The notes under the pieces are model-generated. The model had not been told where the DNA came from and ran no database searches. It saw only the letters and a program-made list of their open reading frames with translations. DNA of 64,000 nt from a virus (taxonomy: Duplodnaviria > Heunggongvirae > Uroviricota > Caudoviricetes). The stretch lies in the IMG/VR virus record IMGVR_UViG_3300017613_001587. One strand, 5' to 3'. Made by a program: the position numbers and the translations under genes. Positions 7,087-44,534 of this stretch are shown one piece after another; positions within the stretch are counted from its first letter, which is position 1; each line of letters opens with the position of its first letter.

Positions 7087-7425
7087 ATGGCTAAATTCTT
7101 TAGTAATGACTCGACAACTGAAGCGAAAAGTCGTAAATGGGCTCAATATAACGATTTTTCGAGCGAAATCGATCATTTAGTGGCTCAATGGAAGGATAAA
7201 TCAACAAAAAAGCCTAAAAACGCCCAAAGTACCGTAAAAACAGCTAAAAACCCTTGTGGAGAGGTAGTTTTGGACAGTTTTTCTTATTTGAGAGCCTCTG
7301 GAGAGCCTATGAAAGCACCTGACTCAACACCTAATCCTAACGAGGCATTTAGGCGACTAAAGTATGGAAAGACGAGTGTTACCGAGTTCTTACGGCTGGC
7401 TAAGGAGACAGGAGATAAACTATAA
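7087..7425 (+). CDS. hypothetical protein with a PNPNEAFRRLK motif
   Basis: ATG after TAGGAACGAA, preceded by TATAAT-containing TAGTATAG repeats. Confidence 0.45.
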   Translation: MAKFFSNDSTTEAKSRKWAQYNDFSSEIDHLVAQWKDKSTKKPKNAQSTVKTAKNPCGEVVLDSFSYLRASGEPMKAPDSTPNPNEAFRRLKYGKTSVTEFLRLAKETGDKL

Positions 7426-7432
7426 TACTATT

Positions 7433-7446
7433 CTATCGATCGATAG
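7433..7446. repeat. 14-bp perfect palindrome CTATCGATCGATAG
   Basis: Seen directly, just after the 7087-7425 stop; related TCGATCGA half-sites follow. Confidence 0.3.
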
Positions 7447-7619
7447 GCAAATCGATGCGTCGAATGTGTGTTCGATCGAGTCCCTGGAATATGTCATTAC
7501 AATAGTATAATAGTATAGTAGTATAGAAATAGTAGTGTAGTATGTATCATGGTCAATTTGTCATGACATTATGCATAGTACAGTATTATTTTGTACATAC
7601 AAATAGAGGAGGATAGACT

Positions 7620-7757
7620 ATGTCAGAAGACTATACCGATGAGGTAGAGCAGTATGAAGCTGAAGGTGAGTACTATAGGGATCAAGGTGGAGATGAGGAG
7701 TTAGAACTGGTGCCTTTAGGTTGGGAAAGGTGGCGTTGTCAGTATATAGGGTATTGA
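7620..7757 (+). CDS. small acidic protein (45 aa)
   Basis: AGAGGAGGATAGACT-ATG; not in the ORF track because it is under 60 aa. Confidence 0.4.
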   Translation: MSEDYTDEVEQYEAEGEYYRDQGGDEELELVPLGWERWRCQYIGY

Positions 7758-7831
7758 TGTATGTTATATACTGGATTCGGATACAGCTTCTTCGCGCGCG
7801 AGAACAAAATACTCAATAACATGGAGGTGTT

Positions 7832-8107
7832 ATGATAACCAGTAATATACTCATAAAAGCAAAAACAAGGGATGATCTGATCAGAGCGCTGGAACAGATA
7901 TTAGATGAGACTAAAAGAACAGCTGAGGTTAGTAAAGCATACAACTGTAATGTTATAACAGAAGATGCACCCTTCAGCTTAATCATGGACACTGTAGAAG
8001 CTCGTTGTGATCATATGGTAGGGGGACGGTGTTCTCATGAAGATTATCCCGACGGGTTCTTACTTGATACACTCTGTGGTACTGATGAGTGTCCACTAGT
8101 TAAATAG
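7832..8107 (+). CDS. hypothetical protein
   Basis: ATGGAGGTGTTATG upstream. Confidence 0.45.
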   Translation: MITSNILIKAKTRDDLIRALEQILDETKRTAEVSKAYNCNVITEDAPFSLIMDTVEARCDHMVGGRCSHEDYPDGFLLDTLCGTDECPLVK

Positions 8108-8140
8108 TATAGTATAACAGTAGTATAGGAGGTATACACC

Positions 8141-8404
8141 ATGGGTTACAATAACGATGTAATAGACTCAGATAACGAGGAGGAAGAGCGCCTAACTAGA
8201 CCGTTTCTTATTCATGTACGTTTCCTTAAATCTCCTGCTTATCTTGGTTACCGTTTCACGAGCAAGAACACATGGATGGTAGATGCTACCGGCGAAGAAG
8301 AGGCTATGGATAAGCTGGAGGTACACCTGAGGTCATTCCTGATAGATGAGCCTGAAGTAGGCGACCACATGATGCTGGATATGTCCAGCGTAACTATTCT
8401 ATAG
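8141..8404 (+). CDS. hypothetical protein
   Basis: CAGTAGTATAGGAGGTAT upstream box. Confidence 0.45.
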   Translation: MGYNNDVIDSDNEEEERLTRPFLIHVRFLKSPAYLGYRFTSKNTWMVDATGEEEAMDKLEVHLRSFLIDEPEVGDHMMLDMSSVTIL

Positions 8405-8435
8405 TATTATATTACAGTAGTATAGGAGGTATGTC

Positions 8436-8600
8436 ATGACAAAGACTCAGTATAGTATGTATAAAGCTATGTTATCATTGGATAGTGATATGCCTAAAAG
8501 TGTTAGGTTAGCTGGTGAGGTGTCCAGTAGGTTTATCATAGGTGTGGCTGCTATTCTGATTGCTGAGAAGTTGTTATATGTTATAATAGATCTACTGTAG
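8436..8600 (+). CDS. small membrane protein (54 aa)
   Basis: The same CAGTAGTATAGGAGGTAT box lies upstream; the start overlaps a TGTCATGACA palindrome. Confidence 0.35.
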   Translation: MTKTQYSMYKAMLSLDSDMPKSVRLAGEVSSRFIIGVAAILIAEKLLYVIIDLL

Positions 8601-8659
8601 ATCCAGGTAATGTTCTTCGCGCTCGGCTTCGAATTGCCCTATAATATGGAGGTGTTATC

Positions 8660-8821
8660 ATGATTAAGGTCAAAGCAGTACTACAGGTCAGTACAGAGGT
8701 AGTGATGATCGAGACCTGGAAGCTGTACCTGCTCGTAGGTGGAGCATTTGCTTACGGTCTGTACTTTGCTTCCTGTGTTATGACAGGGGGTTATGGACTA
8801 ATGCCAATGTTATTTGGATAA
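8660..8821 (+). CDS. small membrane protein (53 aa)
   Basis: ATGGAGGTGTTATC-ATG. Confidence 0.35.
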   Translation: MIKVKAVLQVSTEVVMIETWKLYLLVGGAFAYGLYFASCVMTGGYGLMPMLFG

Positions 8822-8831
8822 AAGGTGCACC

Positions 8832-8948
8832 ATGAAACAATCAACAAAGGATAAGCTTGAGGATATACTAGCATTTATCATAGCATTTGCTATATTTGGC
8901 GGCATGGTGTTAGTGTGTGCTTTTGGTGGTATAATCATGACACATTAG
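8832..8948 (+). CDS. small membrane protein (38 aa)
   Basis: AAAGGTGCACC-ATG; hydrophobic. Confidence 0.3.
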   Translation: MKQSTKDKLEDILAFIIAFAIFGGMVLVCAFGGIIMTH

Positions 8949-8956
8949 GGGGGTGT

Positions 8957-9208
8957 ATGGACATAGAGAAAGAGGTCATCAAACAGATAGCAGCAGGCAT
9001 ACAGAAGGCTAGAGAAGCTGGCGTTGTATGTGGTGATGCTATGGACATCAGAATACGTACTGATTCCACGCCAGTTGTTAATGGTAGGACAGGCAGGTCA
9101 AAACGACTGTACCTTTTTATTACCAAGGAACCTTACCCCACCAAGGCGTACAGGTGGATCAGACAACGGGACAGGGAGTTCCTCAAGTTCCATAAGTGCT
9201 ATCATTAG
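8957..9208 (+). CDS. hypothetical protein
   Basis: Internal ATG of the ORF at 8915. Confidence 0.4.
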   Translation: MDIEKEVIKQIAAGIQKAREAGVVCGDAMDIRIRTDSTPVVNGRTGRSKRLYLFITKEPYPTKAYRWIRQRDREFLKFHKCYH

Positions 9209-9219
9209 GAGGTGTTATC

Positions 9220-9438
9220 ATGAGTGAAGTATGTCAGTGTAAGGATACGGATCATACCGTGTCTATTTGTGTAGGACAGTGTAAGGAGTCTATTGCACAG
9301 GCCGCTAGATGGTTCATTATGTTAAGAGATCATTGTGAACACCATAAAGACGAGCTGTGTCAGATACCGGTATCGAAGGATGTACCTGCTGGTATACTGG
9401 TCTGTAAGATACACAACTGTCCCTTACTGGAGGTATAA
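9220..9438 (+). CDS. hypothetical Cys/His-rich protein
   Basis: TAGGAGGTGTTATC-ATG. Confidence 0.45.
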   Translation: MSEVCQCKDTDHTVSICVGQCKESIAQAARWFIMLRDHCEHHKDELCQIPVSKDVPAGILVCKIHNCPLLEV

Positions 9439-9439
9439 T

Positions 9440-9691
9440 ATGGCAGCAAGTAGACGGACTATCAGAGAATGGCTTGAGAAGGGTAAGAAGATGGGCGCTA
9501 CGCATGTTGTTATAGCGTTAGATACCTATGATTATGACAATTATCCTGTATATGTCATGCCCGGCGGAAAGGGCGCAGAATTCGAGGCCAAGAGAATACA
9601 GGCAGGCAACATGCAATCAGTGGATGAAGTGTATGACCTGTCAATGGATATAGACGAACAGATGTCGCTACCACGCGTCTGGAATACATAA
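9440..9691 (+). CDS. hypothetical protein
   Basis: GGAGGTATAAT-ATG. Confidence 0.45.
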   Translation: MAASRRTIREWLEKGKKMGATHVVIALDTYDYDNYPVYVMPGGKGAEFEAKRIQAGNMQSVDEVYDLSMDIDEQMSLPRVWNT

Positions 9692-9718
9692 TATTACAAC
9701 ACGTTAGGAGGTGTTAGT

Positions 9719-9940
9719 ATGGGGCAACGTTTAGAATTCTTTTGTGATGAGTGTGGTGAAACAGTTGATGAGGAGAACAAGCTCAACGATGCCTGGCGTA
9801 CAACAGTACTCGGGACTCAGATCAAACTCACACCACAACCAACGGTAAAGGGTGGCAAGATGTGCTATACCTGCCTGAGGAAGAAGGCTATTGAAGCTGC
9901 CAAAGGCCTAATCAGTTGGTTCGAACAGAACGAGATCTAG
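9719..9940 (+). CDS. zinc-ribbon protein
   Basis: TAGGAGGTGTTAGT-ATG; CDEC..C..C pairs. Confidence 0.45.
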   Translation: MGQRLEFFCDECGETVDEENKLNDAWRTTVLGTQIKLTPQPTVKGGKMCYTCLRKKAIEAAKGLISWFEQNEI

Positions 9941-9950
9941 GAGGTATAAC

Positions 9951-10256
9951 ATGGTAGAATCTCTGTCAATGGCGCCGGTTCCTAAACCAGCGTTTTCAAA
10001 ATGTCCTAACTGTCTGAATATTACATTTGATGACAGGAGAAAGTCCTGTATCTCATGTGAATACGACCAGGCACAAGACCCTAACTACGGTAGTAATGAT
10101 AACAGGGATGTGATAGAACTGATACCGAGTGGATTCGAGTGGTTATGTCCTCAGTGTGGAGGAATAGAGCAATGTGCTCACATTCCCAGTACCCCGGATC
10201 TTACCTGTCAGTCCTGCGGTGCTAACTACAAGAACGGCGGGGCAGTAGGTTTCTAA
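9951..10256 (+). CDS. zinc-ribbon protein, tandem paralog A
   Basis: Shares the PDLTCQSCGANYKNGG block with the next gene. Confidence 0.45.
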   Translation: MVESLSMAPVPKPAFSKCPNCLNITFDDRRKSCISCEYDQAQDPNYGSNDNRDVIELIPSGFEWLCPQCGGIEQCAHIPSTPDLTCQSCGANYKNGGAVGF

Positions 10257-10277
10257 ACAAGAGAATGGAGGTGTATT

Positions 10278-10640
10278 TTGGATAACAGACCAGTCATAAA
10301 GATAGAGGAAAAGGATAGTGATTTCTATTGGTTCTGCCCGGAGTGTAAAGCCAGGAACGAGGAAGTAATTGTTCCAGGCACACCTGATCTCACCTGTCAG
10401 GCATGCGGTGCCAACTACAAAAACGGTGGTAGCGCCATAGATATAGATCTCGACTTGGAGTTCAACAGGATCAAGCTGTCCAGGCGAGAGAACAGAGACA
10501 GATGGGAAGTCCTCAGAGATGAGTGTCCTCTCAGAAGATTGGCACCTGCCAAAGCGGCTTCCATCACAATCAGGTGCGCAGTGGATGGCGGAGAGATACC
10601 GACCCACTACTGTATTTACAACGTTTGCCCAAAGGTTTAG
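10278..10640 (+). CDS. zinc-ribbon protein, tandem paralog B (TTG start)
   Basis: GGAGGTG then TTG; contains PDLTCQACGANYKNGG. Confidence 0.45.
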   Translation: MDNRPVIKIEEKDSDFYWFCPECKARNEEVIVPGTPDLTCQACGANYKNGGSAIDIDLDLEFNRIKLSRRENRDRWEVLRDECPLRRLAPAKAASITIRCAVDGGEIPTHYCIYNVCPKV

Positions 10641-10650
10641 GAGGTGTATA

Positions 10651-10827
10651 ATGAGTCCTACTCATGATGAGGTGCCGTTAATGCAGTGCAACACGTGTGG
10701 CAGTGAGGTACCACCTGATCAGATCAAGGAGAGAGATCCTCTGTACGAGGTTAAGATACTCCTTATTGGTATTGTTATCGGTGGGTTCGCACGTATGCTG
10801 TTCACGTGGTTTCAAGTCAGTATGTAG
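10651..10827 (+). CDS. small membrane/zinc-ribbon protein
   Basis: TAGGAGGTGTATA-ATG. Confidence 0.4.
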   Translation: MSPTHDEVPLMQCNTCGSEVPPDQIKERDPLYEVKILLIGIVIGGFARMLFTWFQVSM

Positions 10828-10838
10828 GGAGGTATACC

Positions 10839-10961
10839 ATGAAGATACAGTCATGGGAGGATATCATGCGCGAGGCTAAGGCCAAGGAAACCAAGCGCAA
10901 GAAGCTACTGGCCAAGCGCGGGCGTGATCAATTCAAACGTAAGAACAGGAGGTTATCGTGA
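10839..10961 (+). CDS. small basic protein (40 aa)
   Basis: GGGAGGTATACC-ATG. Confidence 0.3.
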   Translation: MKIQSWEDIMREAKAKETKRKKLLAKRGRDQFKRKNRRLS

Positions 10962-11077
10962 GAAAAGGCCAGATGTTCGTGGCACAGGAAAAGGTCAGGC
11001 GAAAGATGCTCACCATGCTAATGATAGGCATTGCCATTGGTGGCGTATTTGTCCTGATATTACAATCATATAAATAG
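10958..11077 (+). CDS. small membrane protein (39 aa, GTG start)
   Basis: AGGAGGTTATC-GTG overlapping the previous stop. Confidence 0.3.
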   Translation: MRKGQMFVAQEKVRRKMLTMLMIGIAIGGVFVLILQSYK

Positions 11078-11087
11078 GAGGTGTATT

Positions 11088-11363
11088 ATGGTAGTTTTAG
11101 TGGCATTATTCTATATCTATTGTATCATTGGTACGTTGATCGGATTCATTCAGATGTGGGCAGGCAACTGGCCCAAGTACACGGTACATGAGGACACCGT
11201 CGGTGGCCTGGCCTCATTCAAGACTGTAGACCTGGAGTATTCCCTGTATTTCTTCCTGTTATGCGGACCCCTGTTCTGGGTATGCTACGGGTTTTACAAG
11301 TTCTTTAGCTGGGTCAGCAGCTTGGTAGAAGAGGATAAAGACGATGACAAGGGACCCAAATAA
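11088..11363 (+). CDS. membrane protein
   Basis: TAGGAGGTGTATT-ATG; two transmembrane helices. Confidence 0.45.
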   Translation: MVVLVALFYIYCIIGTLIGFIQMWAGNWPKYTVHEDTVGGLASFKTVDLEYSLYFFLLCGPLFWVCYGFYKFFSWVSSLVEEDKDDDKGPK

Positions 11364-11547
11364 AGCGTTTAAGCATCGTAAACATCCATACGCCTCGCCC
11401 CGTCCCTATCAGAAAGCCCTGGTAATACGGTGTGATAGAGAGGGGTGTGGCTTCAAGATGAAGATCTCACGCAGCAGATGGCTTGATAAAGACTACGCTA
11501 TTAAATGTCCCCGCTGCATGCGTACAGACTTCTGGACTCCACTGTAA
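11344..11547 (+). CDS. zinc-ribbon protein with an N-terminal DPNKAFKHRK motif
   Basis: Overlaps the end of the upstream gene; CDREGC..CPRC. Confidence 0.45.
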   Translation: MTRDPNKAFKHRKHPYASPRPYQKALVIRCDREGCGFKMKISRSRWLDKDYAIKCPRCMRTDFWTPL

Positions 11548-11559
11548 GGAGGTGTAATC

Positions 11560-11796
11560 ATGGCAGATGCCATTGATATCATGAAAGAGGTGGCACGGAC
11601 TGTCATCCGCGAAGAACTGAGGCTTCAGGTTAAGCGAGAGGATAGCTCGGACACCGATAAGTTCTCCATAACGATGATGTTATGGGGTGAACCAATAGGT
11701 GAATCTGTGCTTATCGAGTTGTCATCCATGTGGGAACAGGACGACCTGCTGTATGACCTGGAACTTGTCCAAAAGATCATGGTCGTTGACAAGTGA
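11560..11796 (+). CDS. hypothetical protein
   Basis: AAGGAGGTGTAATC-ATG. Confidence 0.45.
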   Translation: MADAIDIMKEVARTVIREELRLQVKREDSSDTDKFSITMMLWGEPIGESVLIELSSMWEQDDLLYDLELVQKIMVVDK

Positions 11797-11804
11797 TTCG
11801 GAGT

Positions 11805-11990: not shown

Positions 11991-12003
11991 AAAGGAGGTT
12001 CTA

Positions 12004-12950: not shown

Positions 12951-12960
12951 GAGGTGTTAC

Positions 12961-16060: not shown

Positions 16061-16288
16061 ATGTTTAGACGAACCAGGGAATGTTGTAGCTTCATATGCA
16101 GTGACCCATGGGGTTGCTTAGAGCTAGTTAAACTAGTCAGTGGTGTTCTGGTCTGTTTTCTGCTCGGGGCTGTGTACTATAGCCTACTGGCATTATTTGA
16201 GAAGGCCACTGGAAAGGATTATTTACTACGTGGAACCGAACAAAGCGTTCAGGATAAAGCGCCGGAAGATCGGCAGGAAGAAGTGTAG
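16061..16288 (+). CDS. small membrane protein whose 3' part overlaps 16140-16529 in another frame
   Basis: ATAGGAGGTATCGCT-ATG; transmembrane helix. Confidence 0.4.
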   Translation: MFRRTRECCSFICSDPWGCLELVKLVSGVLVCFLLGAVYYSLLALFEKATGKDYLLRGTEQSVQDKAPEDRQEEV

Positions 16289-16529
16289 AGTATGTGGCCG
16301 TACCTGGGAACAGTCTGTATCCACATGTCTGTGTGGTAATGAGACAGCATGGATTAGCCAGGATAAAGTTAAGCTAGGATCTTCTCATATTTGGGAATGT
16401 AAGACGTGTGGTAGTAAGAAGGTCCTTCTTGGCACCACACTTGATGGCCATCAATGGCTACAAAACCATCCAGACTGTCCCAACTGCGGCCATGGCCGAA
16501 GCGCTAAAGATTACGATTGCATATCATAA
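16140..16529 (+). CDS. zinc-ribbon protein with an EPNKAFRIKRRK motif; the true start is probably internal
   Basis: The motif and four CxxC pairs are in this frame. Confidence 0.4.
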   Translation: MVFWSVFCSGLCTIAYWHYLRRPLERIIYYVEPNKAFRIKRRKIGRKKCRVCGRTWEQSVSTCLCGNETAWISQDKVKLGSSHIWECKTCGSKKVLLGTTLDGHQWLQNHPDCPNCGHGRSAKDYDCIS

Positions 16530-17885: not shown

Positions 17886-18191
17886 GTGATGGAATCTAGA
17901 CTAAGGTACCGTGATATACCGTGGGGGGTGGCATTCTGTGTGCTGCCAGGTAAGATCATCGGTAGGTGTGTAATTGATCCATGCGTCAGGTTTAGCGTGA
18001 GCTGGAAGCGAATTATGATGCGGTGGCTTCAAAGACTGCTTATATTTACGATAGTTATAGTAGTCGTCGGCCTCTTGCTCTTTGGGATCGATGCTCTGAC
18101 ACAAGGGGAGTTCTTTGGTTGGCTGCTGCATATATGGCATCAGGTATCACCACCACCGGACACTACTGACGTTGTACTGAGGCCACATTAA
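17886..18191 (+). CDS. membrane protein
   Basis: AAAGGAGATTCGTG-ATG. Confidence 0.4.
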   Translation: MMESRLRYRDIPWGVAFCVLPGKIIGRCVIDPCVRFSVSWKRIMMRWLQRLLIFTIVIVVVGLLLFGIDALTQGEFFGWLLHIWHQVSPPPDTTDVVLRPH

Positions 18192-18529
18192 TGAATAATA
18201 GGAAATTAATACGGAAACTTACAGGCTCATACCTGATTAGGTGTAAGTACTGGGTGGTATGTGGTAGGGAACATTGTATGCATTACGAACCGCATACTCC
18301 CGTTGCCAATCATTGTATCCTTATGAGCCCTGTTAAATACTGTGGCGCAGTGGGAGGGTTTGTCCACGATATCCCCCTGAGTGAGATAGACTCAAATTAT
18401 CAATGTGATCCGAATCTTGCGTTCAAGGCTAAGGTGGACGCTGACAACAGGAGGACCAAAAAGTACGAACAGGCAATGAACAAACGACGGCACCCAGCAG
18501 GGTGGGATGATAGTGATGACTACTTCTAA
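18191..18529 (+). CDS. hypothetical protein with a DPNLAFKAK motif
   Basis: ATGA overlap with the upstream stop. Confidence 0.45.
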   Translation: MNNRKLIRKLTGSYLIRCKYWVVCGREHCMHYEPHTPVANHCILMSPVKYCGAVGGFVHDIPLSEIDSNYQCDPNLAFKAKVDADNRRTKKYEQAMNKRRHPAGWDDSDDYF

Positions 18530-19410: not shown

Positions 19411-19670
19411 TGTATTTAGCCAAAATGAGTGGCTCCTTAGTGGAGCCTGGTACTACGATCGAGATAACTGGTGTTGATGACTTTAAGTGTGAAGTGCTGG
19501 CTGTTCACCCAGAGCACTTCGACATAAAGTGGCTGCTGGGTGAGAACAAAGGTAAAGTCGACAAACTACCGTTCTCTATATTTGGTCATGATGCGGTGTC
19601 GGTGTTCGAGGTTAAGGATAGCACATCGGAACCTAATAAAGCATGGTTATATAAGAGGATGACGGAGTGA
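19404..19670 (+). CDS. member of a small paralogous family (C-terminal EPNKAW)
   Basis: ORF track. Confidence 0.45.
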   Translation: MLMYLAKMSGSLVEPGTTIEITGVDDFKCEVLAVHPEHFDIKWLLGENKGKVDKLPFSIFGHDAVSVFEVKDSTSEPNKAWLYKRMTE

Positions 19671-20053
19671 GTATGACAACTAGCAGTAATTATTATTTTG
19701 AAACAACCTGGTCAAGCGATAACTTAGTGAATGTGAGTGAGATGCAGAAGGATGCTACCATTATAGACACTAAAGCTCCGCATGAGGAGTGGTCTGATGT
19801 AGTGAAAGCATCTTTTAATGGTGTAAGCTATCAATTAGAGGACGTAGTATCTCTCATTAAACACGAAGACAATACCTTCGCTAGGATAATTGAGTTTGGT
19901 CCAATTGAGGCTACTCTACGTATTGTAGGAACTGGTAAGTTAATCAGAGAGCATTATGCGTACTTCGAACACATTGACCATAGACGTCTGGCTAAAGTCA
20001 GGCTAAATCCTAACGAGGCATTTAGACATCGGAAGAAGAAGAGGAGGTTCTGA
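19667..20053 (+). CDS. hypothetical protein ending NPNEAFRHRKKKRRF
   Basis: ATGA overlap with the upstream stop. Confidence 0.45.
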   Translation: MSMTTSSNYYFETTWSSDNLVNVSEMQKDATIIDTKAPHEEWSDVVKASFNGVSYQLEDVVSLIKHEDNTFARIIEFGPIEATLRIVGTGKLIREHYAYFEHIDHRRLAKVRLNPNEAFRHRKKKRRF

Positions 20054-20280: not shown

Positions 20281-20471
20281 TAATATTACTATGGCTAATC
20301 ACAGCCAAGTGGACGGTAGGAGCTGGTTACGGCATCTATCTCTTGCGTAATAACCCAGGTCCATGGGATTGGAAAGACACATGGATGGTAGGTCCATTAT
20401 TCTGGGCAGGCTACGGTCTGGGAAGAGGTGTTAAATGGTGTATGACACGTATCCGGTCGGCACGGTCGTAA
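20259..20471 (+). CDS. membrane protein
   Basis: GGGGAGGTATTCCAATC-ATG. Confidence 0.4.
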   Translation: MDFDNIIVILLWLITAKWTVGAGYGIYLLRNNPGPWDWKDTWMVGPLFWAGYGLGRGVKWCMTRIRSARS

Positions 20472-20710
20472 AAGTAAAAAAGCGTATGTCTCAGCCCAGC
20501 AATTGGAATGAAGACATGTTCAATGATATAGCTGGCATGACGCTCAAGGTAGTCAGTAATAGTATGGAAACTATAACATCGGGCCGTAAATACATATATA
20601 CTCTCGAAGGTTATAGGTGGTCTTGGCGTCATATAGACCTCAAACTGGTCAAAGCGGCTGAACTAGAGCCGAACTTAGCATTTAGGATTAAAAAGCATGG
20701 ACGTAGATGA
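20435..20710 (+). CDS. paralog-family protein (YPVGTVVKV..SNWNEDM; C-terminal EPNLAFRIKKHGRR)
   Basis: Aligns with 20697-20987 and 44175-44534. Confidence 0.45.
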   Translation: MVYDTYPVGTVVKVKKRMSQPSNWNEDMFNDIAGMTLKVVSNSMETITSGRKYIYTLEGYRWSWRHIDLKLVKAAELEPNLAFRIKKHGRR

Positions 20711-20987
20711 AATATACCCCGGTCAAATAGTCAGAATCATTGAATGGGAGTATCGTCCCGAACACTGGTCTGAAGATATGGATGGCTGGCAGGGAGAGGT
20801 AGTCACCATTGGCAAGATATACGATGATGAAGAAATCTATATCGAGGATGATAGCCGGGAGTGGCAATGGTACCCAGAGGACTTCGAACCTTACCACATG
20901 ATACCAGCAGATAATCCTAACATGCGCTATAAAGTTCACAAGCATGAGGCAAGAATGCGTGAACTCAGAGGAGTATTGAAGAAATGA
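20697..20987 (+). CDS. paralog-family protein (YPGQIVRII..EHWSEDM; C-terminal NPNMRYKVHKH)
   Basis: Aligns with 20435-20710. Confidence 0.45.
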   Translation: MDVDEIYPGQIVRIIEWEYRPEHWSEDMDGWQGEVVTIGKIYDDEEIYIEDDSREWQWYPEDFEPYHMIPADNPNMRYKVHKHEARMRELRGVLKK

Positions 20988-21256: not shown

Positions 21257-21697
21257 ATGAAATTCAGAACAAAGTTAATGTCGGCCATCGTCGTCCTGTG
21301 TGCGTTGTCCTTTACCGCAGGCCTGTGTATCAATGAAGGACTTGCTGCTGAGCAGAAAGGCCTGAAAGTACTCGGTAAGATTAATGTCAAGGCTGGAACC
21401 CAGTTGGAAGGTATCGTCATGGTTGGCCAGGCCTCTACTGGCTTCATGTTTGTAGCCTTCGAGGATACAACTATCTATATCTTGGAGAAGATCGCTCCGG
21501 TTGCCGGAAGCCACAATGGCGGATACATGGCCGATTCTGATGGGTTTCCCCACAATTGCCCGACGCACGGCTTGGAGCCGATGGGGCCTGGAATCATTCT
21601 CATCCCACAGCAGCTCGTCGACGATGGTACGGTTGAAGTCATGCTTTTTGAGCAGGGTATGCCCAACGCCGGTGATGGGAGTACCAATGGCGGATGA
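21257..21697 (+). CDS. secreted protein with a signal peptide
   Basis: AAAAGGAGATTGAGTC-ATG; N-terminal hydrophobic signal MKFRTKLMSAIVVLCALSFTAGLC. Confidence 0.45.
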   Translation: MKFRTKLMSAIVVLCALSFTAGLCINEGLAAEQKGLKVLGKINVKAGTQLEGIVMVGQASTGFMFVAFEDTTIYILEKIAPVAGSHNGGYMADSDGFPHNCPTHGLEPMGPGIILIPQQLVDDGTVEVMLFEQGMPNAGDGSTNGG

Positions 21698-21869
21698 ACT
21701 GCCGAACCCAAACGAACTGTTTAAGGACCATCCGGGACAAACACTAGAGCCGCCTTGGGAGCCGTTCTGGGACTGCATTAGTTTTGCCTCGGATGACTGT
21801 CCTCAGGACTGTGATAATTGTGACGCACCTAAGGACACTATTGATCTATTATGTGAAGCCAAGTGGTAA
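21687..21869 (+). CDS. small Cys-rich protein starting MADELPNPNELFK
   Basis: GGGAGTACCA-ATG. Confidence 0.35.
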   Translation: MADELPNPNELFKDHPGQTLEPPWEPFWDCISFASDDCPQDCDNCDAPKDTIDLLCEAKW

Positions 21870-29337: not shown

Positions 29338-29354
29338 GGAAGGAGGTGTTAGTT

Positions 29355-29759
29355 ATGAGAGAGATCGAATGCAGGAAAGGATTTACCCTGGTTGAATTGC
29401 TGATCGTTCTTGCAATTCTTGCTATACTGGGTGCTCTGTTTATCCCCATGATTGATGGAAAAGCCCACGGCGCCGAACTCGGCCAATTCCTGTTAGCTGA
29501 GGATGATACCATAGCAGAAGTGGCACATGCTGCCCAAAGTGATCCGCATCAGACACTCACTATTCTGGTGTATGCAAAAACGTGGGACGTTGAGAAGGTA
29601 GATACTCTGCTGGACAAGGCTGCGGCGGTACAGGCTAAACTGATCAGCCACAGGATACCAGTCCACCGTATTAATCTGCATCTTGCCAATGAAGGCGGCC
29701 TGAAGGAAGACGGCACTACCGCACCGGCAAGCGATGGGGTATACATCTCACTGGATTAG
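29355..29759 (+). CDS. type IV pilin-like / pseudopilin protein
   Basis: AAGGAGGTG then ATG. MREIECRKG|FTLVELLIVLAILAILGALFIP is a prepilin motif with Glu at +5. Confidence 0.55.
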   Translation: MREIECRKGFTLVELLIVLAILAILGALFIPMIDGKAHGAELGQFLLAEDDTIAEVAHAAQSDPHQTLTILVYAKTWDVEKVDTLLDKAAAVQAKLISHRIPVHRINLHLANEGGLKEDGTTAPASDGVYISLD

Positions 29760-34413: not shown

Positions 34414-34698
34414 ATGGACACAAACCCGAATCAGGCATATAAAGACCGTGAGCTTAAAGGCGGCGATGGTGTGATGATGACCGAGTACCAGCGGGTTATC
34501 ATTGAGCGTCAGTGCAAAAAGCATAATATATCTCTGATGCGCCTGACTACCAGAGCCTTGGGCTATCGTAAGAAAACAGCTGATATAACCCATATCGATG
34601 CGGCCCGCTGTATCATGATGGGGGCTGTATGGGGAAACTACGTAACTGCAGGGTATGAGCCCGAAAGGAGACTCAATGTCAAGAATAGTCATGAATGA
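34414..34698 (+). CDS. hypothetical protein with an N-terminal NPNQAYKDR motif
   Basis: ORF track. Confidence 0.4.
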   Translation: MDTNPNQAYKDRELKGGDGVMMTEYQRVIIERQCKKHNISLMRLTTRALGYRKKTADITHIDAARCIMMGAVWGNYVTAGYEPERRLNVKNSHE

Positions 34699-39120: not shown

Positions 39121-39135
39121 TAGGAGAATAACAAC

Positions 39136-39750: not shown

Positions 39751-40025
39751 TTACTGTCATCCAGAAGGAAAGATGGCAACTTGGTCCCTGGTGTTTAGCA
39801 TGTATTCAACAATCTGGCCCGGCTGACTTAATGATATGTAAGTTATGCATGGGCTACGTAGCTACTTACTGGAAATGTCCTAGCTGCCATAGGATAGACC
39901 ACTACTATGCTCATGATGAGCCAGCCGCCTGTGCTTGTGGCTTCGTCCTGCCTAGTGTGGAAGATCTCAAACACGAAAAATCAGCCAGGGTAATGTACCA
40001 AACAGCTAAGGAACTGTATGATTAA
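39747..40025 (+). CDS. zinc-ribbon paralog 4 (C-terminal RVMYQT)
   Basis: CKLC..CPSC. Confidence 0.4.
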   Translation: MITVIQKERWQLGPWCLACIQQSGPADLMICKLCMGYVATYWKCPSCHRIDHYYAHDEPAACACGFVLPSVEDLKHEKSARVMYQTAKELYD

Positions 40026-40090
40026 AGTTACTGAAGACGGGATAGAGCAAGACGAACCGATAGAGCTCTCCCAGGAAGACTTGGATTTCA

Positions 40091-40432
40091 TTGGCGAAAT
40101 GTTCGATGACTTCGCCGACCATCAAAAACATCCATTGGATCGGCCAGATAGGGAGTGGAATGCTTAGCCTACAGAGACAAGATCTACATCTGAGATCGCC
40201 GAGATGCCACGATTTTTGTAAGAACTATCGTGTAGAAGGGTGTCTCAACGATTGTAATATGCGCTTCCGTGGTATATATGAGTGTCCACACTGTTCTACT
40301 ACAGGCTGCTATTACGGGAATAATAATCCCCTCTGCTGTCCAATGTGTAAAAGACCTTTACCAGATTATTGGAAACTCGAGCGCAGTAGTGATCCCTCAG
40401 CTCGTATTACTTACCACTTAAACGACAACTGA
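40091..40432 (+). CDS. zinc-ribbon paralog 5 (C-terminal RITYHL)
   Basis: CPHC..CPMC. Confidence 0.4.
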   Translation: MAKCSMTSPTIKNIHWIGQIGSGMLSLQRQDLHLRSPRCHDFCKNYRVEGCLNDCNMRFRGIYECPHCSTTGCYYGNNNPLCCPMCKRPLPDYWKLERSSDPSARITYHLNDN

Positions 40433-40445
40433 TACAGAGGTATAA

Positions 40446-41210
40446 ATGCTTTCATTTCAATTTGCAAACTATGGATGGGGTACGTCAGCCAGTAAAGAGT
40501 TCAAATGGGTTTATACCCATCCAGATCCCAAAAATCCTGGTAAACTCGTAAACAGCAGTAAGAGTAACACCTGCCGGGAATATTTCGTCAAGAATCTCCG
40601 TTATCATATCAACCAGGGCGATGGCTTCATTCCTGAAGGCCGCCGTGCATATGCACTGGTCTCTTTTGGTATGCCGCGGAATGCATTATTCGAAGCCTGG
40701 CAAGATGCATTGAATAAAGCCGCAGAGAAGAGTATTTACATCATAAACTCTTACGAGAAGCATCATAAATGGCAGCGTACCCGGCTTTACCCGGTTAAAA
40801 CCGCTGGCGCTCCCATGGTGTTCTTTAATGGCCCAAAACGATGGACTATGTCCCCTTACCTGATGTCTATGTGGACACTTATGATTCGTATGGGGCGTAA
40901 TTCATGGTTGCCTAAGAAGCTCCTGAAAATGGGCCACGAGGAGATGGTGAAGTATATCACGAAAGCAGCTGACAATAGGGGCGGCGATGGGTATCAAGTT
41001 GCAAGATCTATACACGAATGGGACAACTTCATGGCTCTGTACAAAAAGTTGTTCGGTAACAATAATCGCAAATATCACTGGCAAGTAAGTCATCTCAATG
41101 GAAGGTCCGATAGACCTGAGGGCATCCAGAAACTCATGGATGGCACCACTGGCTACACATCACTACACAATAAGTACTATAAACTGAAAAAGGAGGCTGG
41201 TTTTAAATGA
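40446..41210 (+). CDS. hypothetical protein (254 aa)
   Basis: ORF track. Confidence 0.45.
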   Translation: MLSFQFANYGWGTSASKEFKWVYTHPDPKNPGKLVNSSKSNTCREYFVKNLRYHINQGDGFIPEGRRAYALVSFGMPRNALFEAWQDALNKAAEKSIYIINSYEKHHKWQRTRLYPVKTAGAPMVFFNGPKRWTMSPYLMSMWTLMIRMGRNSWLPKKLLKMGHEEMVKYITKAADNRGGDGYQVARSIHEWDNFMALYKKLFGNNNRKYHWQVSHLNGRSDRPEGIQKLMDGTTGYTSLHNKYYKLKKEAGFK

Positions 41211-41803
41211 AGTCACAAAAGAAGAAAAAATACACCCCGGAAGAAAGGGCGGCGATGTTCGAGCCGACTTACGTATTCGGTTATGGATCGTTGCTACTGG
41301 CTCATGGCATTAATGGACGTGGAATGAAGAAGAAGTACAAAGACTCCGATCTGATACCTTGCACCCTTAACGGATTTGCAAGGTCAATGTGTGGATTCTT
41401 TGGCGGTCGGAACTTCTACGGCCTGCTGGAAAATAAAAAGGCCAGTTGTAATGGTGTCATATTCAAGATTCACGACTGGTATGACTACCGCTCGTTTCTA
41501 TACAGCGAAGGTGCCACTTCCGGCTACCGCCAGCATCGGACCTACTGGCCTATTCGCGTGACCACAAAGATCACCGGCTGTAAGAAGCCCACAGGCCATC
41601 GCGTCATGACACTGCTCTGTAAGGAAGATAAGGCCAACGTGGGCAGAGTCGAGAAAAGCTACATACATCTCTGTCATGAAGGCGCCAAACTCTGGGGCGC
41701 GGAATTCGAACAAACTTTTCTGCAGACCGGCGGTATCCCTTACGCCAAGAAGGGTAAGGAGATGAAGGCAATCGCCAAGGAGCATAACATTAAAACGTGG
41801 TAG
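41207..41803 (+). CDS. gamma-glutamyl cyclotransferase-like (GGCT/AIG2 fold) protein
   Basis: YVFGYGSLL..NGFAR..NGVIFKI..SEGATSGYRQ follows the GGCT YxxGSNL..GY.R..G.vy.I..EG..Y.R pattern. Confidence 0.5.
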   Translation: MKSQKKKKYTPEERAAMFEPTYVFGYGSLLLAHGINGRGMKKKYKDSDLIPCTLNGFARSMCGFFGGRNFYGLLENKKASCNGVIFKIHDWYDYRSFLYSEGATSGYRQHRTYWPIRVTTKITGCKKPTGHRVMTLLCKEDKANVGRVEKSYIHLCHEGAKLWGAEFEQTFLQTGGIPYAKKGKEMKAIAKEHNIKTW

Positions 41804-41812
41804 GAGGCCACC

Positions 41813-41986
41813 ATGGAAAGAACAGTCCAAGACCACATGTTAAGAGCCGCCGAGGAGGAAGTTTCCAAGGGAGTATGTCCTGAATATTGGCGGTTAGCGG
41901 GCGAAAGAGAGACCAGTCGGGAGGCTGATCTTGCTGAGGCCCTCACTCTACACGATTTCCCGTGTCAGAGCTATTTCCAGGCGTAA
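41813..41986 (+). CDS. small hypothetical protein (57 aa)
   Basis: GTAGGAGGCCACC-ATG. Confidence 0.35.
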   Translation: MERTVQDHMLRAAEEEVSKGVCPEYWRLAGERETSREADLAEALTLHDFPCQSYFQA

Positions 41987-42025
41987 TGGGCGCATAGTAC
42001 CCTAAATATAAGGAGGCCGTATAAT

Positions 42026-42910
42026 ATGGCAATTAGATCAAAAGTAGGACTCGAGGCGGAGTTCTTACTCATCAACGCTAAGGGTGAGATTATCATTCCG
42101 CCGTCGTCATGGGACCGTGATGGCTTCCCTCTACTCGGAGAAATCCGGGGTAAAGAGGGTGAAACCGTCGCCGAAACAGTAACCAACTTCCGCGCCAAAG
42201 AGATGGAGATCATCGAGGATATGCGTAGAGGACATTCCATGCGGATGTCTGATCTCGAGATGATCAAACTCGCTTTGTACAAGAAGGCCAATAAGGAAGT
42301 CAACTGGGCTGAGAAAGAAGCCGACATGGGTAAGATCAGGAACATCCATGGCGTAGATATTGAAGGGTTCTCAGATCAAGTTGTTAAAGGCAACAAGATC
42401 CAGGGTATTCGGATCAGCTGCGGCCTTCACATTCATTTCTCCTGCAGTGAGGACATTGACTATGATTATGAGCAGGAGCAGTATGAGCAGGTTATACTGC
42501 CGATCGGTATGGGTGATACCGGTATCTTCGTGGCCCAGCACAATGACATGGACACGCACGAAGAGCTGCCTTTGTCCCCACAGCAACTACTGGCTAAAGA
42601 GCTGCTCAGCCCGACTCTGTACTTGTACCGCCGTAAAGGGTATAAGAAGGAGAAGAACTTCAAGCTCAACGCCAGCCGCCTTAACAAGCCCGCTATTGAG
42701 TTCATCGTAGCCGCGCTTGATAAGGAGTTCTTCGAAAGATTTGCTCCACCGAAGGCGGATCGAACCAAATATCGCCAACCCGGATTCTTCGAACTCAAAC
42801 CGTATGGTTTTGAATATCGCAGTCTCCCGGCCAATGCTCAGGTTATGGAAGCTTTACCGGAGATCACCAGAAAGGCATTCGACCTGATCGAGGAGATCAA
42901 TGAGTACTAG
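42026..42910 (+). CDS. GCS2/YbdK-family carboxylate-amine ligase (gamma-glutamyl-cysteine-ligase-like amidoligase)
   Basis: N-terminal VGLEAEFLLIN plus GLHIHFS, which are characteristic GCS2 blocks. Confidence 0.55.
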   Translation: MAIRSKVGLEAEFLLINAKGEIIIPPSSWDRDGFPLLGEIRGKEGETVAETVTNFRAKEMEIIEDMRRGHSMRMSDLEMIKLALYKKANKEVNWAEKEADMGKIRNIHGVDIEGFSDQVVKGNKIQGIRISCGLHIHFSCSEDIDYDYEQEQYEQVILPIGMGDTGIFVAQHNDMDTHEELPLSPQQLLAKELLSPTLYLYRRKGYKKEKNFKLNASRLNKPAIEFIVAALDKEFFERFAPPKADRTKYRQPGFFELKPYGFEYRSLPANAQVMEALPEITRKAFDLIEEINEY

Positions 42911-43088
42911 TTACGAACGCACTATTCAATACGACTCAGGGAAGGACTCCGTGTTCAACGAGAATGCGGAGTCTCTCACTGAGGCACTCGACCGAGAGTT
43001 GAAATTTATTGGGAACCAGCGGACTACTAACAGTAGAAAGCTAGTGTCAATACATATAAAGGTGAGAGATGTCAACAGAGCAGCTTAA
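42900..43088 (+). CDS. hypothetical protein
   Basis: ORF track. Confidence 0.35.
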   Translation: MSTSYERTIQYDSGKDSVFNENAESLTEALDRELKFIGNQRTTNSRKLVSIHIKVRDVNRAA

Positions 43089-43239
43089 ATATAAGGTAAC
43101 CACATATAATATTGCGGGCGGGTCTATGACCTGCCAGCTCACTGCCGACAAAATCACCGACGCTCTTGACCATGAACTCGACTGGTGCCATAAACACCAC
43201 AAAAAGATAGAAGCCATCGAGGTCAAACAGATAAAGTAA
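43069..43239 (+). CDS. small hypothetical protein (56 aa)
   Basis: AAGGTGAGAG-ATG. Confidence 0.3.
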   Translation: MSTEQLKYKVTTYNIAGGSMTCQLTADKITDALDHELDWCHKHHKKIEAIEVKQIK

Positions 43240-43251
43240 GGAGGTCCCACC

Positions 43252-43404
43252 ATGTCCGAATTCAAAGAAGAACACATCATCAGTGCATTCAAGCGGTGTG
43301 TCAAGGAACTTAAGGCGGATCATATGTATGTCGATTCCAGCCTCGAAATTGACAAGCGCGGGAATGTAATCATATCAATCAGAGCCGATAACGAGCCTCG
43401 ATGA
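43252..43404 (+). CDS. small hypothetical protein (50 aa)
   Basis: AAGGAGGTCCCACC-ATG. Confidence 0.35.
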   Translation: MSEFKEEHIISAFKRCVKELKADHMYVDSSLEIDKRGNVIISIRADNEPR

Positions 43405-43634
43405 AATCCTCTAGATTTTACCAAACCTGTCTGCAGTTGATAGGGTCTGTTGGTGAGATCATCCTATTCCTCTGCGGTTTTTTCCTAGGCAAGGAAATGT
43501 TCGTGACTGCTCTTATTTTTCTTATTATCCGTATCGTTCATAAAATTATCATTTCCGAGCTTATGTACCGTAGATCTATTGTTGTCGTAAGGGAGGAGGT
43601 TAAACCGGATGTTCAGAATGAACCCTGCCGTTAG
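43401..43634 (+). CDS. membrane protein
   Basis: ORF track. Confidence 0.4.
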   Translation: MKSSRFYQTCLQLIGSVGEIILFLCGFFLGKEMFVTALIFLIIRIVHKIIISELMYRRSIVVVREEVKPDVQNEPCR

Positions 43635-44106
43635 ACAATACCTAATACATAGTTATCTATACTATGAGCTGAATGAGTCTGTTATTTCGGATCATGAATA
43701 TGATCAACTGTGCGTCGAACTGCTAAAGTCTGACGTTGACCATCCTCTGGTTGACAAGGGAAACTTAGAGGCTGGGACTGGTTATAATATAAAGGACTAC
43801 CCGAAGGATATTATAGAGGAAGCTAAAAAGCTCCTCAAGAGTGCCCCTAAACCTGCCGCTGGCACCGATCCTTATGAAAAGAAGCCGTTGATATTCACCG
43901 GTGAACCGGGTGAGACCTATATACTGCTGGGGATGTACATAGACTTCGGTTATGCCAAGGAAAGAGACAGGCAGGATGAGATAAGAACAGAGCTCCAAAA
44001 GCGTTGGGACTCAAAAGACGCCGGTCATCGGGCTTCATTCCAGAAGTACTTCGATTCTTGGGACGAAGGCCTGGAAAGGTTTAAATTAAATGGAAAGAGC
44101 ACCTGA
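43609..44106 (+). CDS. hypothetical protein whose N-terminus resembles the NMN-binding Ia domain of NAD-dependent DNA ligase
   Basis: AVRQYLIHSYLYYELNESVISDHEYDQLCVELLK can be compared with the LigA Ia HxYxYYVxDxPxISDxEYDxLxxEL pattern. Confidence 0.4.
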   Translation: MFRMNPAVRQYLIHSYLYYELNESVISDHEYDQLCVELLKSDVDHPLVDKGNLEAGTGYNIKDYPKDIIEEAKKLLKSAPKPAAGTDPYEKKPLIFTGEPGETYILLGMYIDFGYAKERDRQDEIRTELQKRWDSKDAGHRASFQKYFDSWDEGLERFKLNGKST

Positions 44107-44174
44107 TCACGTACCATGTGAAGCTAAGATCTGCAAGAACTACAAAGACTATGCCAAGGGGTGTGTCTATATAG

Positions 44175-44534
44175 ATGTTGCAATCAACAGCCGCGGCAAA
44201 TGCAAGTTCTTCGCCAGAAAAAAACCATACCCGAGGACTAAAAAGCGTGGGCAATAAGACCATAGATATACCTCTAGATGTGGGAGATACAGTCATGATA
44301 AGGAAGTATGCTGTTAATCCTGGCTTCTGGGATACTCAATATCAAATGTACAAGCTTGCAGAATTGGGCGAGCTCCATAAAATTGCACACGTAAGAAACC
44401 CAGATAGACTCTTGTTAGAGGGGTCACAGTGGGTGTGGCGCCGTAAAGACCTCGTACTGCTTGTCAAAAGAAAGGGAAGCTTTAGAGATCCTAACCGAGC
44501 CTTTATGGCAGCGAAGGGACTAGGCAAACGATGA
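44175..44534 (+). CDS. paralog-family protein (VGDTVMIRKY..W..; C-terminal DPNRAFMAAKGLGKR)
   Basis: Aligns with 20435 and 20697; the start is uncertain. Confidence 0.4.
   Translation: MLQSTAAANASSSPEKNHTRGLKSVGNKTIDIPLDVGDTVMIRKYAVNPGFWDTQYQMYKLAELGELHKIAHVRNPDRLLLEGSQWVWRRKDLVLLVKRKGSFRDPNRAFMAAKGLGKR

Follow-up and report, generated by a model that had tools for sequence, protein, structure and literature searches.

Why do a dozen small proteins of one phage genome carry the same short peptide, is that peptide a genuine shared element, and what might it do? The window examined here, by which we mean the whole 64,000-nucleotide stretch of IMG/VR record IMGVR_UViG_3300017613_001587 (Caudoviricetes) that was analysed, was said in a first-pass annotation to encode the peptide (D/E)PNxAF(K/R), followed by a basic tail, in at least 11 small proteins. 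All 11 listed sites were found with the quoted residues (P codons at nt 7336, 11356, 16236, 18410, 19632, 20009, 20669, 20916, 21708, 34426 and 44490), together with a twelfth that was absent from that list: NPNIVFRRRKLK, followed by a stop, with its P codon at 59754 in gene 59559-59789. Written as [D/N/E]-P-N-x-[A/L/V]-[F/Y/W]-[K/R]-x-basic-basic, the motif has 12 copies in the window, all in coding frames of the + strand, against an expectation of about 0.9. The copies are as follows, with scores from the position matrix described below.

7333..7365, + strand: NPNEAFRRLKY in gene 7087-7425, internal, 30 residues short of the C-terminus; matrix score 17.9.
11353..11385, + strand: DPNKAFKHRKH in zinc-ribbon protein 11344-11547, three residues past the start Met; matrix score 25.3.
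16233..16265, + strand: EPNKAFRIKRR in ORF 16140-16529, a multi-zinc-ribbon protein; matrix score 23.0.
18407..18439, + strand: DPNLAFKAKVD in gene 18191-18529, internal, after a Cys-rich domain.
19629..19661, + strand: EPNKAWLYKRM at the C-terminus of gene 19404/19410-19670, whose stop overlaps the next start.
20006..20038, + strand: NPNEAFRHRKK at the C-terminus of gene 19667/19673-20053; matrix score 21.2.
20666..20698, + strand: EPNLAFRIKKH, C-terminal in gene 20435-20710, which encodes a Mind-bomb-repeat-like SH3 barrel (subfamily A).
20913..20945, + strand: NPNMRYKVHKH, close to the C-terminus in gene 20697-20987, which encodes a Mind-bomb-repeat-like SH3 barrel (subfamily B); matrix score 30.6.
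21705..21737, + strand: NPNELFKDHPG in gene 21687-21869, a Cys-rich protein, six residues past the start Met.
34423..34455, + strand: NPNQAYKDREL in gene 34414-34698, three residues past the start Met.
44487..44519, + strand: DPNRAFMAAKG, C-terminal in gene 44175-44534, which encodes a Mind-bomb-repeat-like SH3 barrel (subfamily C).
59751..59783, + strand: NPNIVFRRRKL, C-terminal in gene 59559-59789, which encodes a small MIB/HERC2-like barrel; matrix score 26.1.

This recurrence far exceeds what composition would give. When the 148 proteins of the + strand gene set were shuffled internally, PNx[ALRV][FWY] was expected 0.89 times and observed 11 times, a count reached in none of 2,000 shuffles, and PNxAF was expected 0.10 times and observed seven times. 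In a six-frame control, [DEN]PN..[FWY] occurred 12 times in the window's long + strand ORFs and once on the three minus frames. A position matrix trained on 88 sites, all from outside the window, recovered 11 window sites with scores of 8.9-30.6 (null count over threshold 0.33); the site at 21708 lies outside the gene set that the matrix scanned, hence 11 recoveries rather than 12. Codon third positions differ freely between copies (CCT/CCA/CCG, AAC/AAT, GCA/GCG/GCC, TTT/TTC), which bears out the earlier claim that conservation is at the level of the peptide. A repeat or gene-boundary signal in the DNA itself can be rejected, since third positions vary and every copy reads P-N-x-x-aromatic in its coding frame. 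Across 118 unique sites, chosen by a pattern that requires P, N and the aromatic, so that these three positions are no evidence in themselves, D, N or E precedes Pro in 117, with F as the aromatic in 86 and Y in 28; Pro and Asn show no variation in family alignment A3. The motif has no match in Pfam, in NCBIfam or among named PHROG families, in keeping with the earlier reader's inability to match it to a described motif. The shared peptide tail is thus real and undescribed, and its consensus is [D/N>E]-P-N-[L/I/V/M]-[A>L/V]-[F>Y>W]-[R/K]-x-[K/R/H]-[K/R]-[R/H/K].

Six of the 12 window copies lie at the extreme C-terminus, two are internal and three or four are N-terminal, depending on where ORF 16140-16529 starts: its copy is N-terminal only if translation begins at the GTG at 16230. 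This ORF was left uncalled by the source's gene caller and overlaps the end of 16061-16288, and gene 21687-21869 was called as a 60-aa gene. The first-pass annotation had placed three N-terminal copies in genes overlapping the preceding one, which is true of 11344-11547 (a 20-nt overlap with the end of 11088-11363, and its own GAGGA ribosome-binding site) and wrong for 34414, which has no overlap with the gene upstream. In C-terminal carriers the final 10 residues contain 4.5 K/R, compared with 1.58 in the other 142 proteins (Mann-Whitney p = 1.4e-4), and most motif carriers are net basic. At 11356, 16236 and 7336 the N-terminal or internal copies have the basic run with no start nearby downstream, so the tail is not merely a by-product of purine-rich ribosome-binding sites. 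Some copies immediately follow the Met of zinc-ribbon and other small proteins, one occupies the domain junction of the L019 fusion (barrel, motif, zinc ribbon), and the tandem fusion P0004 has the tail on its last domain only. Because it can stand at either terminus, at a domain junction or only at the chain end in fusions, the motif is a portable terminal peptide module of about 11-15 residues.

Most window copies, nine of 12, fall within 7.3-21.7 kb, in a long array of tiny genes that adjoins replication and metabolic genes. Divergent sigma-70-like promoters, by consensus matches only, lie at 6969-7044, directly before gene 7087, the first gene past that divergent region; promoter-like matches in the region number 42 against 34.6 (sd 6.7) in shuffled sequence, a total not above expectation. 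On these consensus matches, the array is apparently one of sigma-70-driven early genes.

The motif is also conserved in related phages, on which the earlier interpretation had been made to depend. Five diverged related contigs, which were located through the barrels and, like all relatives, are metagenomic, carry 5-9 copies each; with the window (134 kb in all) they hold 47 copies in long + strand ORFs and one on minus frames. Orthologues in these contigs are 40-66% identical and retain the motif. For gene 18191 (whole-protein identity 48-60%), L017 retains the stretch DSNYQCDPNLAFKAK, and the L013 and L020 orthologues retain CDPNLAFKAK. Those of 19404 retain DPNQAFLIKRL or NPNQAFLLKRL (L017 and L020), the L017 orthologue of 21687 has an identical NPNELFKDHPG, the L013 orthologue of 34414 starts LNPNQAYKNRSRG, and an orthologue-like L020 counterpart of 11344 reads MDPNRAFKYRN... 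and then a zinc ribbon. For 19667, motif-masked BLAST found an orthologue in L013, and a likely one in L020 was seen by eye. A profile search of 1.84 billion proteins turned up some 70 clusters of proteins, 76-130 aa long, that bear this tail (74 matches at E <= 1e-3, five of them at E <= 1e-10), the tail being present in 71 of 73 short matches. Four distant YpsA-bearing jumbo-phage loci had no motif copy in coding frames. The module recurs within a single clade of uncultured large phages and is restricted to it.

The carriers had been called unrelated. Once the motif is masked, at least 18 families are indeed distinct by BLAST, but several carriers share barrel ancestry. Genes 20435, 20697 and 44175 encode members of a single HMM-detectable family of Mind-bomb-repeat-like SH3 barrels, of which this tail is the hallmark (44175 scores 72 bits against the family profile), and 59559 falls in a MIB/HERC2-like barrel family with remote homology to the first. 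Similarity to the two domains with which Mind bomb, a eukaryotic ligase, binds its substrates is thus detectable in four of the 12 window carriers; another two look like small barrels by eye only, among them 19404, whose body is beta-rich and barrel-like and has no detectable relationship to the Mind-bomb-like family. The Pfam matches themselves are low: for SH3_15 (PF18346), 20697 scored 15.8 bits (E 0.018) against a gathering threshold of 24 bits, and only two of 62 family members matched (best E 4.5e-4), but in fold these proteins match the MIB1 REP domain; for MIB_HERC2 (PF06701), a single sequence reached 18.6 bits, under the 33.5-bit cut-off. The motif-free profile A8 matches the MZM domain of MIB1 (E 6.2e-5) and HECTD1 (E 0.04), and nine of its 11 outside matches still bear the tail. 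The motif is the signature C-terminal tail of two remotely related, uncurated small SH3-type barrel families, whose nearest known relatives are the Mind bomb REP (SH3_15) and MIB/HERC2 domains. Tail-less barrel relatives also occur (P0054, P0064, P0072, P0115 and P0116). In eukaryotes the Mind bomb domains belong to a large E3 ligase and lack a P-N-x-A-F basic tail, whereas the phage proteins are single-domain, 76-130 aa long and under Pfam thresholds.

AlphaFold2 models give the tail as a helix of moderate confidence (pLDDT about 71, dropping to 53). In the six barrel-like window carriers a predicted basic helix begins at the motif, 5-10 residues past the barrel (at Pro79 in 20435). By prediction, the motif caps and opens a short alpha-helix that is mostly basic; in 20697 the barrel is very acidic (net -18) and the basic helix longer.

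As to function, we tentatively favour, at a probability of about 0.4, a short linear docking tag for one shared protein partner. The P-N-x-x-aromatic core, aided by the flanking basic residues, would bind one conserved partner in the infected cell, so that fast-diverging small binder domains might all be tethered to the same hub, each variable domain bringing its own target specificity. Docking is suggested by analogy, since peptide binding is the known job of the nearest barrel relatives: in MIB1, the REP and MZM domains recognise short boxes within the tails of Notch ligands (PMC11887331). A specific core, rather than charge alone, is argued for by the orthologues that retain NPNELFKDHPG and NPNQAYK without a polybasic run, and by a motif as conserved as the barrel or more so (identity 0.64 against 0.38 in subfamily A). 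The C-terminal hub-docking peptide of FtsZ, D-I-P-x-F-L-R-K (consensus D-[IV]-P-x-[FY]-L-[RK]), becomes helical on binding several partners. The phage tag has the same order of acidic or Asx residue, Pro, aromatic and basic residue at the extreme terminus, which is a resemblance only: an FtsZ-type peptide is rejected, as three residues lie between Pro and the aromatic here and one in FtsZ, and the Asn that always comes after Pro here is missing in FtsZ.

It is possible, if less so, that the partner is a nucleic acid or other polyanion, given the net basic charge of most carriers and the frequency with which zinc ribbons and SH3/KOW-type barrels interact with nucleic acids. A capped basic helix would then anchor the small barrels and zinc ribbons to DNA or RNA in the style of an AT-hook or arginine-rich motif, the aromatic stacking or wedging and Lys/Arg touching phosphates. 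Like those motifs, the module is small, autonomous, basic and found on either end of unrelated proteins. However, the conserved NPNELFKDHPG and NPNQAYKDRE have no polybasic run and keep the P-N-x-x-aromatic core, the subfamily B barrel has a net charge of -18, and a strict Asx-Pro-Asn-x-x-aromatic exceeds electrostatic need. An AT-hook proper is rejected, there being no G-R-P core in the consensus over 118 sites; Pro, Asn and the aromatic are invariant here instead (Pro and Asn in A3), and some conserved copies are not polybasic.

Rather unlikely is an address system run by the phage clade itself, with the tag as ligand of the Mind-bomb-like barrels or another clade-specific receptor and a dozen or more early proteins joined through multivalent tag-barrel contacts into one complex or compartment; if true, it would bring eukaryote-like SH3-and-peptide wiring logic to a bacterial virus. 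That the peptide specifically binds the phage's own barrels, in cis as autoinhibition or in trans as a multivalent network with tag-only proteins, we think improbable. The barrels' nearest relatives are domains that bind peptides, an Asn of the N-box bound by the MIB1 MZM domain is critical (PMC11887331), P21, W24, W64 and D68 are near-invariant surface-type residues across the barrel family, and tag and barrels occur together in all six genome fragments; yet that co-occurrence is by construction, as contigs were located through barrels, the 19404 family has no detectable relationship to them, and AlphaFold2 gives a helix rather than a bound extended peptide.

There is little likelihood that the tail is a virion (capsid) targeting signal by which small anti-defence proteins would be loaded into the head and injected together with the DNA. 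The design recalls the internal proteins of T-even phages, in which a short terminal peptide, the capsid targeting sequence, is the sole common feature of diverse, fast-evolving small proteins (PMC3012670), and a basic tail would fit packing beside DNA. Against this, the T4-type placement is N-terminal, and here six of 12 copies are C-terminal and two internal, in a sequence without similarity. The nine copies in the apparently early array behind sigma-70-like promoters count mildly against capsid loading, and no structural genes were seen in the window or 10 kb beyond. The T-even signal is removed by the prohead protease.

A terminal degron or protease adaptor-tether, which would shorten the lifetime of early proteins or deliver bound targets for degradation, is likewise doubtful. 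The tail is a short, basic and exposed terminal peptide that occurs at either end of early small proteins and accompanies barrels that resemble substrate-recognition modules of a ubiquitin ligase; precedents of this type are the basic C-terminal ClpX-recognition tail of MuA and the ClpX-binding tail of SspB. However, its sequence matches no known degron, the window yielded no phage protease, and the internal copies (7087 and 18191) and that at the L019 fusion junction are not terminal.

A purely structural role, with a helix N-cap and a Phe packed on its own domain repeated through paralogue descent, is very improbable: Asx-Pro is a classic helix N-cap, the predicted helix begins at Pro and many carriers are diverged barrels of possibly common ancestry, but the motif directly follows Met in zinc-ribbon proteins, the inner barrel of P0004 and other barrels do without it, and capping leaves the invariant Asn at the second helix position unexplained.

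Small early phage proteins are mostly orphans; here 12 in one genome, and dozens in relatives, bear one tag. The two uncurated Mind-bomb-like SH3 barrel families defined in phages link a eukaryotic peptide-recognition fold to viral host-takeover genes. The tag may serve as a fusion handle, a single partner-finding result could give context to many orphan genes simultaneously, and it could reveal a hub on which the phage clade depends.

A six-frame search of the window for P-N-x-x-aromatic recovered all 11 sites listed in the first-pass annotation, with residues exactly as quoted there, and added a twelfth absent from that list (NPNIVFRRRKLK followed directly by a stop codon, nt 59754). The annotation had allowed that the peptide might be no commoner than in a shuffled proteome; instead, when residues were shuffled within each protein of a greedy set of 148 plus-strand window proteins, PNx[ALRV][FWY] was observed 11 times against 0.89 expected (none of 2000 shuffles reached 11) and PNxAF seven times against 0.10, so the motif is far commoner than composition predicts. 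Long plus-strand ORFs contain 12 matches to the stricter [DEN]PN..[FWY], the three minus frames only one. A position matrix trained on 88 sites, all from outside the window, recovered 11 window sites and nothing else (null count above threshold 0.33), site 21708 being outside the scanned gene set. As previously claimed, conservation lies at the level of the peptide, because the Pro, Asn, Ala and Phe codons vary from copy to copy; a DNA-level repeat is ruled out, as the copies differ at synonymous sites and the motif is specific to the coding frame. The case that the motif is real and under selection is strong. Collected by a pattern demanding Pro, Asn and an aromatic residue, 118 unique sites give the consensus [D56/N50/E11]-P-N-[L/I/V/M]-[A51/L/V]-[F86/Y28/W4]-[R/K]-x-[K/R/H]-[K75/R25]-[R/H/K], exemplified by ELEPNLAFRIKKHGRR and NPNEAFRHRKKKRRF.

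Five diverged related contigs, reached through members of the barrel family described below, have a gene order in common with the window (YpsA, DUF6811, RNase H, DUF488-N3a, prepilin-type protein, NADAR), with orthologues only 40–66% identical at the protein level. The motif occurs seven times in L013, five in L015, nine in L017, six in L019 and eight in L020, always in long plus-strand ORFs and never on the other strand. Orthologues keep it: CDPNLAFKAK is found in all orthologues of the 18191 family (with DSNYQCDPNLAFKAK in that of L017), NPNELFKDHPG in the 21687 family and NPNQAYK in the 34414 family. The annotation's second concern, that the motif might not be conserved in related phages, is thus removed. 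Four distant jumbo-phage loci having only YpsA in common hold no coding copies.

About half of the proteins behind the 118 sites end 10–16 residues past the Pro. In a second class the motif directly follows the initiator Met, usually ahead of zinc ribbons:

Gene 11344: MTRDPNKAF
Gene 34414: MDTNPNQAY
Gene 21687: MADELPNPNELF
Contig L019: MDPNRVFKRGK
Contig L020: MDPNRAFKYRN
Contig L017: MNPNDKFRH
ORF 16140-16529: (M)EPNKAF, a possible copy, N-terminal only if the start is GTG 16230

The last of these ORFs, uncalled by the source's gene caller, is clearly coding and multi-zinc-ribbon, with several CxxC pairs; it overlaps the 3′ end of gene 16061-16288 and has candidate starts at GTG 16140 or GTG 16230. 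Nothing supports the idea that the N-terminal copies extend the upstream gene by frameshifting: they have their own start codons, 11344 and 21687 have good ribosome-binding sites, and in L017 there is no overlap between the orthologue of 21687 and its neighbour. In the near-identical variant contig L002, an indel relative to window 21333-21355 changes the call for gene 21257-21697, directly upstream of 21687, from 146 aa to 92 aa.

As a terminal module, the motif is autonomous. When it was masked, 33 carriers from four genome fragments fell into at least 18 BLAST-distinct groups. A fusion of two barrels (P0004, subfamily A typified by 20435 and subfamily B by 20697) keeps the tail only at its very end, and an L019 fusion runs from a MIB/HERC2-like barrel through NNPNAAFQRSKSAKK to a zinc ribbon. 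Some barrels lack the tail (P0054, P0064, P0072, P0115 and P0116), so that the fold can do without it. Compared among orthologues, the motif is at least as well conserved as the domain (identity 0.64 vs 0.38 in subfamily A, 0.42 vs 0.28 across the whole family).

By eye, the six C-terminal carriers (19404, 19667, 20435, 20697, 44175 and 59559) have the look of small beta-barrels. A profile of the six, searched against 1.84 billion representative proteins, gave 74 matches at E ≤ 1e-3 and five at E ≤ 1e-10, nearly all of 76–130 aa and all metagenomic without protein names; 71 of 73 short matches carry [D/N/E]-P-N-x-x-[F/Y/W] plus a basic tail, directly after a conserved core, P.HW...M....G..VTI...W.W..D[LF]. 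A motif-free profile, used as an unbiased check on this association, found the tail 5–12 residues past the domain in nine of 11 outside matches, the two most distant lacking it. No named family in Pfam, NCBIfam or PHROGs covers the barrel carriers, no close or named relatives were found in GenBank phages, IMG/VR, GTDB genomes, Pfam, NCBIfam or named PHROGs, and a viral structure library returned only unnamed small barrels. Three alignments (A1, A3 and A5) were too diverse for scanning loci. A model from a six-sequence alignment was poor (pLDDT 54); a confident AlphaFold2 model from 62 sequences (pLDDT 87) predicted a barrel at residues 1–73 and a helix at 79–89.

The nearest fold relatives of these barrels are the REP (Pfam SH3_15) and MIB/HERC2 domains of Mind bomb; the REP and MZM (MIB/HERC2) domains of MIB1 bind short peptide boxes within the tails of Notch ligands (PMC11887331). 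A second carrier family, comprising 59559 and relatives in all five diverged contigs, matches the MIB1 MIB/HERC2 domain at E 6.2e-5 when trimmed of the motif. Both types of Mind bomb peptide-binding domain thus appear to have phage counterparts here, both tail-bearing. The earlier description of the carriers as unrelated small proteins holds only in part: BLAST links 20435 to 20697 over their full length and to the C-terminal 34 residues of 44175, and the 59559 family aligns with the first barrel family (hhalign probability 84%), whereas no relationship to the Mind-bomb-like barrels could be detected for the 19404 family.

A nucleotide comparison with GenBank phages gave no match for the window, which looks like the non-structural portion of a large phage that is novel. 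The 20435 protein is confined to four JGI contigs, reaching 108.5 kb and ~99.9% identical to the window. Coding is almost wholly on the plus strand, in densely packed small genes with almost no PHROGs matches; products include an SSB, a YpsA/SLOG protein, RNase H, RtcB and peptide deformylase. The interval 6443-7086 looks like a regulatory region, bounded by gene 7087, the first motif carrier:

6480-6498: terminator-like hairpin
6665-6892, minus strand: ORF that, read by eye, looks like a ribbon-helix-helix-like repressor
6969-6996, minus strand: sigma-70-like promoter match
7015-7044, plus strand: sigma-70-like promoter match, facing away from the preceding one

The divergent pair (6969-7044), flanked by the minus-strand ORF and gene 7087, comprises the two best promoter-like matches of the 6.3–24.5 kb stretch, where the total is not above expectation (42 vs 34.6 shuffled, sd 6.7). 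As consensus matches, they suggest that the 7–24 kb array, holding nine of the 12 motif copies, may be an early operon.

Several other features of the window were recorded. A full, complete-looking NAD+ salvage block at 48558-56653 (PnuC-like transporter, NadR-like nucleotidyltransferase/AAA_28, isochorismatase-type nicotinamidase, NAPRTase and NAD synthase) is probably a counter-measure against NAD-depleting host defences; outside the block the window encodes a NUDIX protein and another whose NAD-binding domain is DNA-ligase-like, and a NADAR gene was seen only in related contigs (L013, L015). RtcB (56929-58290) is interrupted by a single in-frame TGA at 57184-57186 (NIVGVDIG-stop-TMLY), at the position of its conserved metal-binding Cys (GVDIGCGM), with a small hairpin (CCAGA-AGTT-TCTGG, 57207-57220) 21 nt downstream; the TGA could be selenocysteine, other recoding or the mark of a pseudogene, and no tRNA-Sec was found in the window. 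Two tandem tRNAs (45306-45484) do not differ in their acceptor and T arms. The first (45306-45390; anticodon UCU, D loop insertion of ~13–15 nt) was missed by ARAGORN, although the Rfam tRNA model gives it 60.9 bits; the second is tRNA-Arg(ACG). The SSB (189-791) and protein 5603-6442, which lacks a Pfam SSB match, have a similar Ala/Pro/Val-rich C-terminal stretch ending GGFV.P....P.GV (53% identity over 51 residues) that may be a phage-specific partner-binding tail. Prepilin-type N-terminal methylation motifs in 950-1621 and 29346-29759, kept in L013, mark pseudopilin-like proteins, an unusual phage cargo. Paralogue pairs comprise adjacent zinc-ribbon proteins (9951-10256 and 10278-10640; common PDLTCQxCGANYKNGG, 55% identity over 51 residues) and two proteins of 254–258 aa without assigned function (40446-41210 and 62446-63222; 28% identity, E 1e-24).

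Each of the six C-terminal carriers either overlaps the start of the next gene or abuts it, and their Lys/Arg codons hold GGAG-like strings. The ribosome-binding site of the following gene thus accounts for the basic tail in part but not sufficiently: the last ten residues of C-terminal carriers contain 4.5 K/R on average, compared with 1.58 in other proteins (p = 1.4e-4), and a basic run is also present in the copies at 11356, 16236 and 7336, which have no start codon nearby downstream.

Our preferred reading, to which we assign a probability of roughly 40%, is that the motif would serve for docking, as a short linear motif that one common partner recognises; it draws on the terminal position, the autonomy, the tight core and the survival of P-N-x-x-aromatic-K in variants kept among orthologues although the polybasic run is lost. 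The carriers would then have an adaptor-like design, a variable binder domain on a constant tether, which is plausible by analogy because the attached domains are fast-diverging small binders whose relatives bind peptides. Basic residues, zinc ribbons and KOW/Tudor-like folds would suit a tail that binds nucleic acid or another polyanion, but conserved variants lack the basic run and the subfamily B barrel has a charge of −18, leaving this a distinctly weaker candidate. Capsid targeting in the style of T-even internal proteins is improbable, given the mostly C-terminal position and the early-looking gene context, and we hold two further readings to be just as improbable, namely a degron or protease tether and a ligand that the phage's own barrels would bind. 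That the motif is purely a structural helix cap is very doubtful, even with the modelled helix beginning at the motif Pro (pLDDT ~71, dropping to 53 at its end).

T-even internal proteins have only the capsid targeting sequence in common (PMC3012670). That T4 sequence is the nearest conceptual precedent, a short terminal peptide as the sole common feature of diverse small phage proteins. In sequence pattern the motif loosely resembles hub-docking tails such as the FtsZ C-terminal peptide, with different spacing. Membership in known classes cannot be claimed, because the phage barrels score below Pfam thresholds, the position differs from that of the T4 sequence and the motif has no AT-hook core; the annotation had matched it to nothing described, and we too found no matching described motif or curated family. 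Terminal tags common to diverse small viral proteins are of a kind already known; this one is carried largely by two uncurated phage protein families, and there is a clear experimental route from motif to partner.
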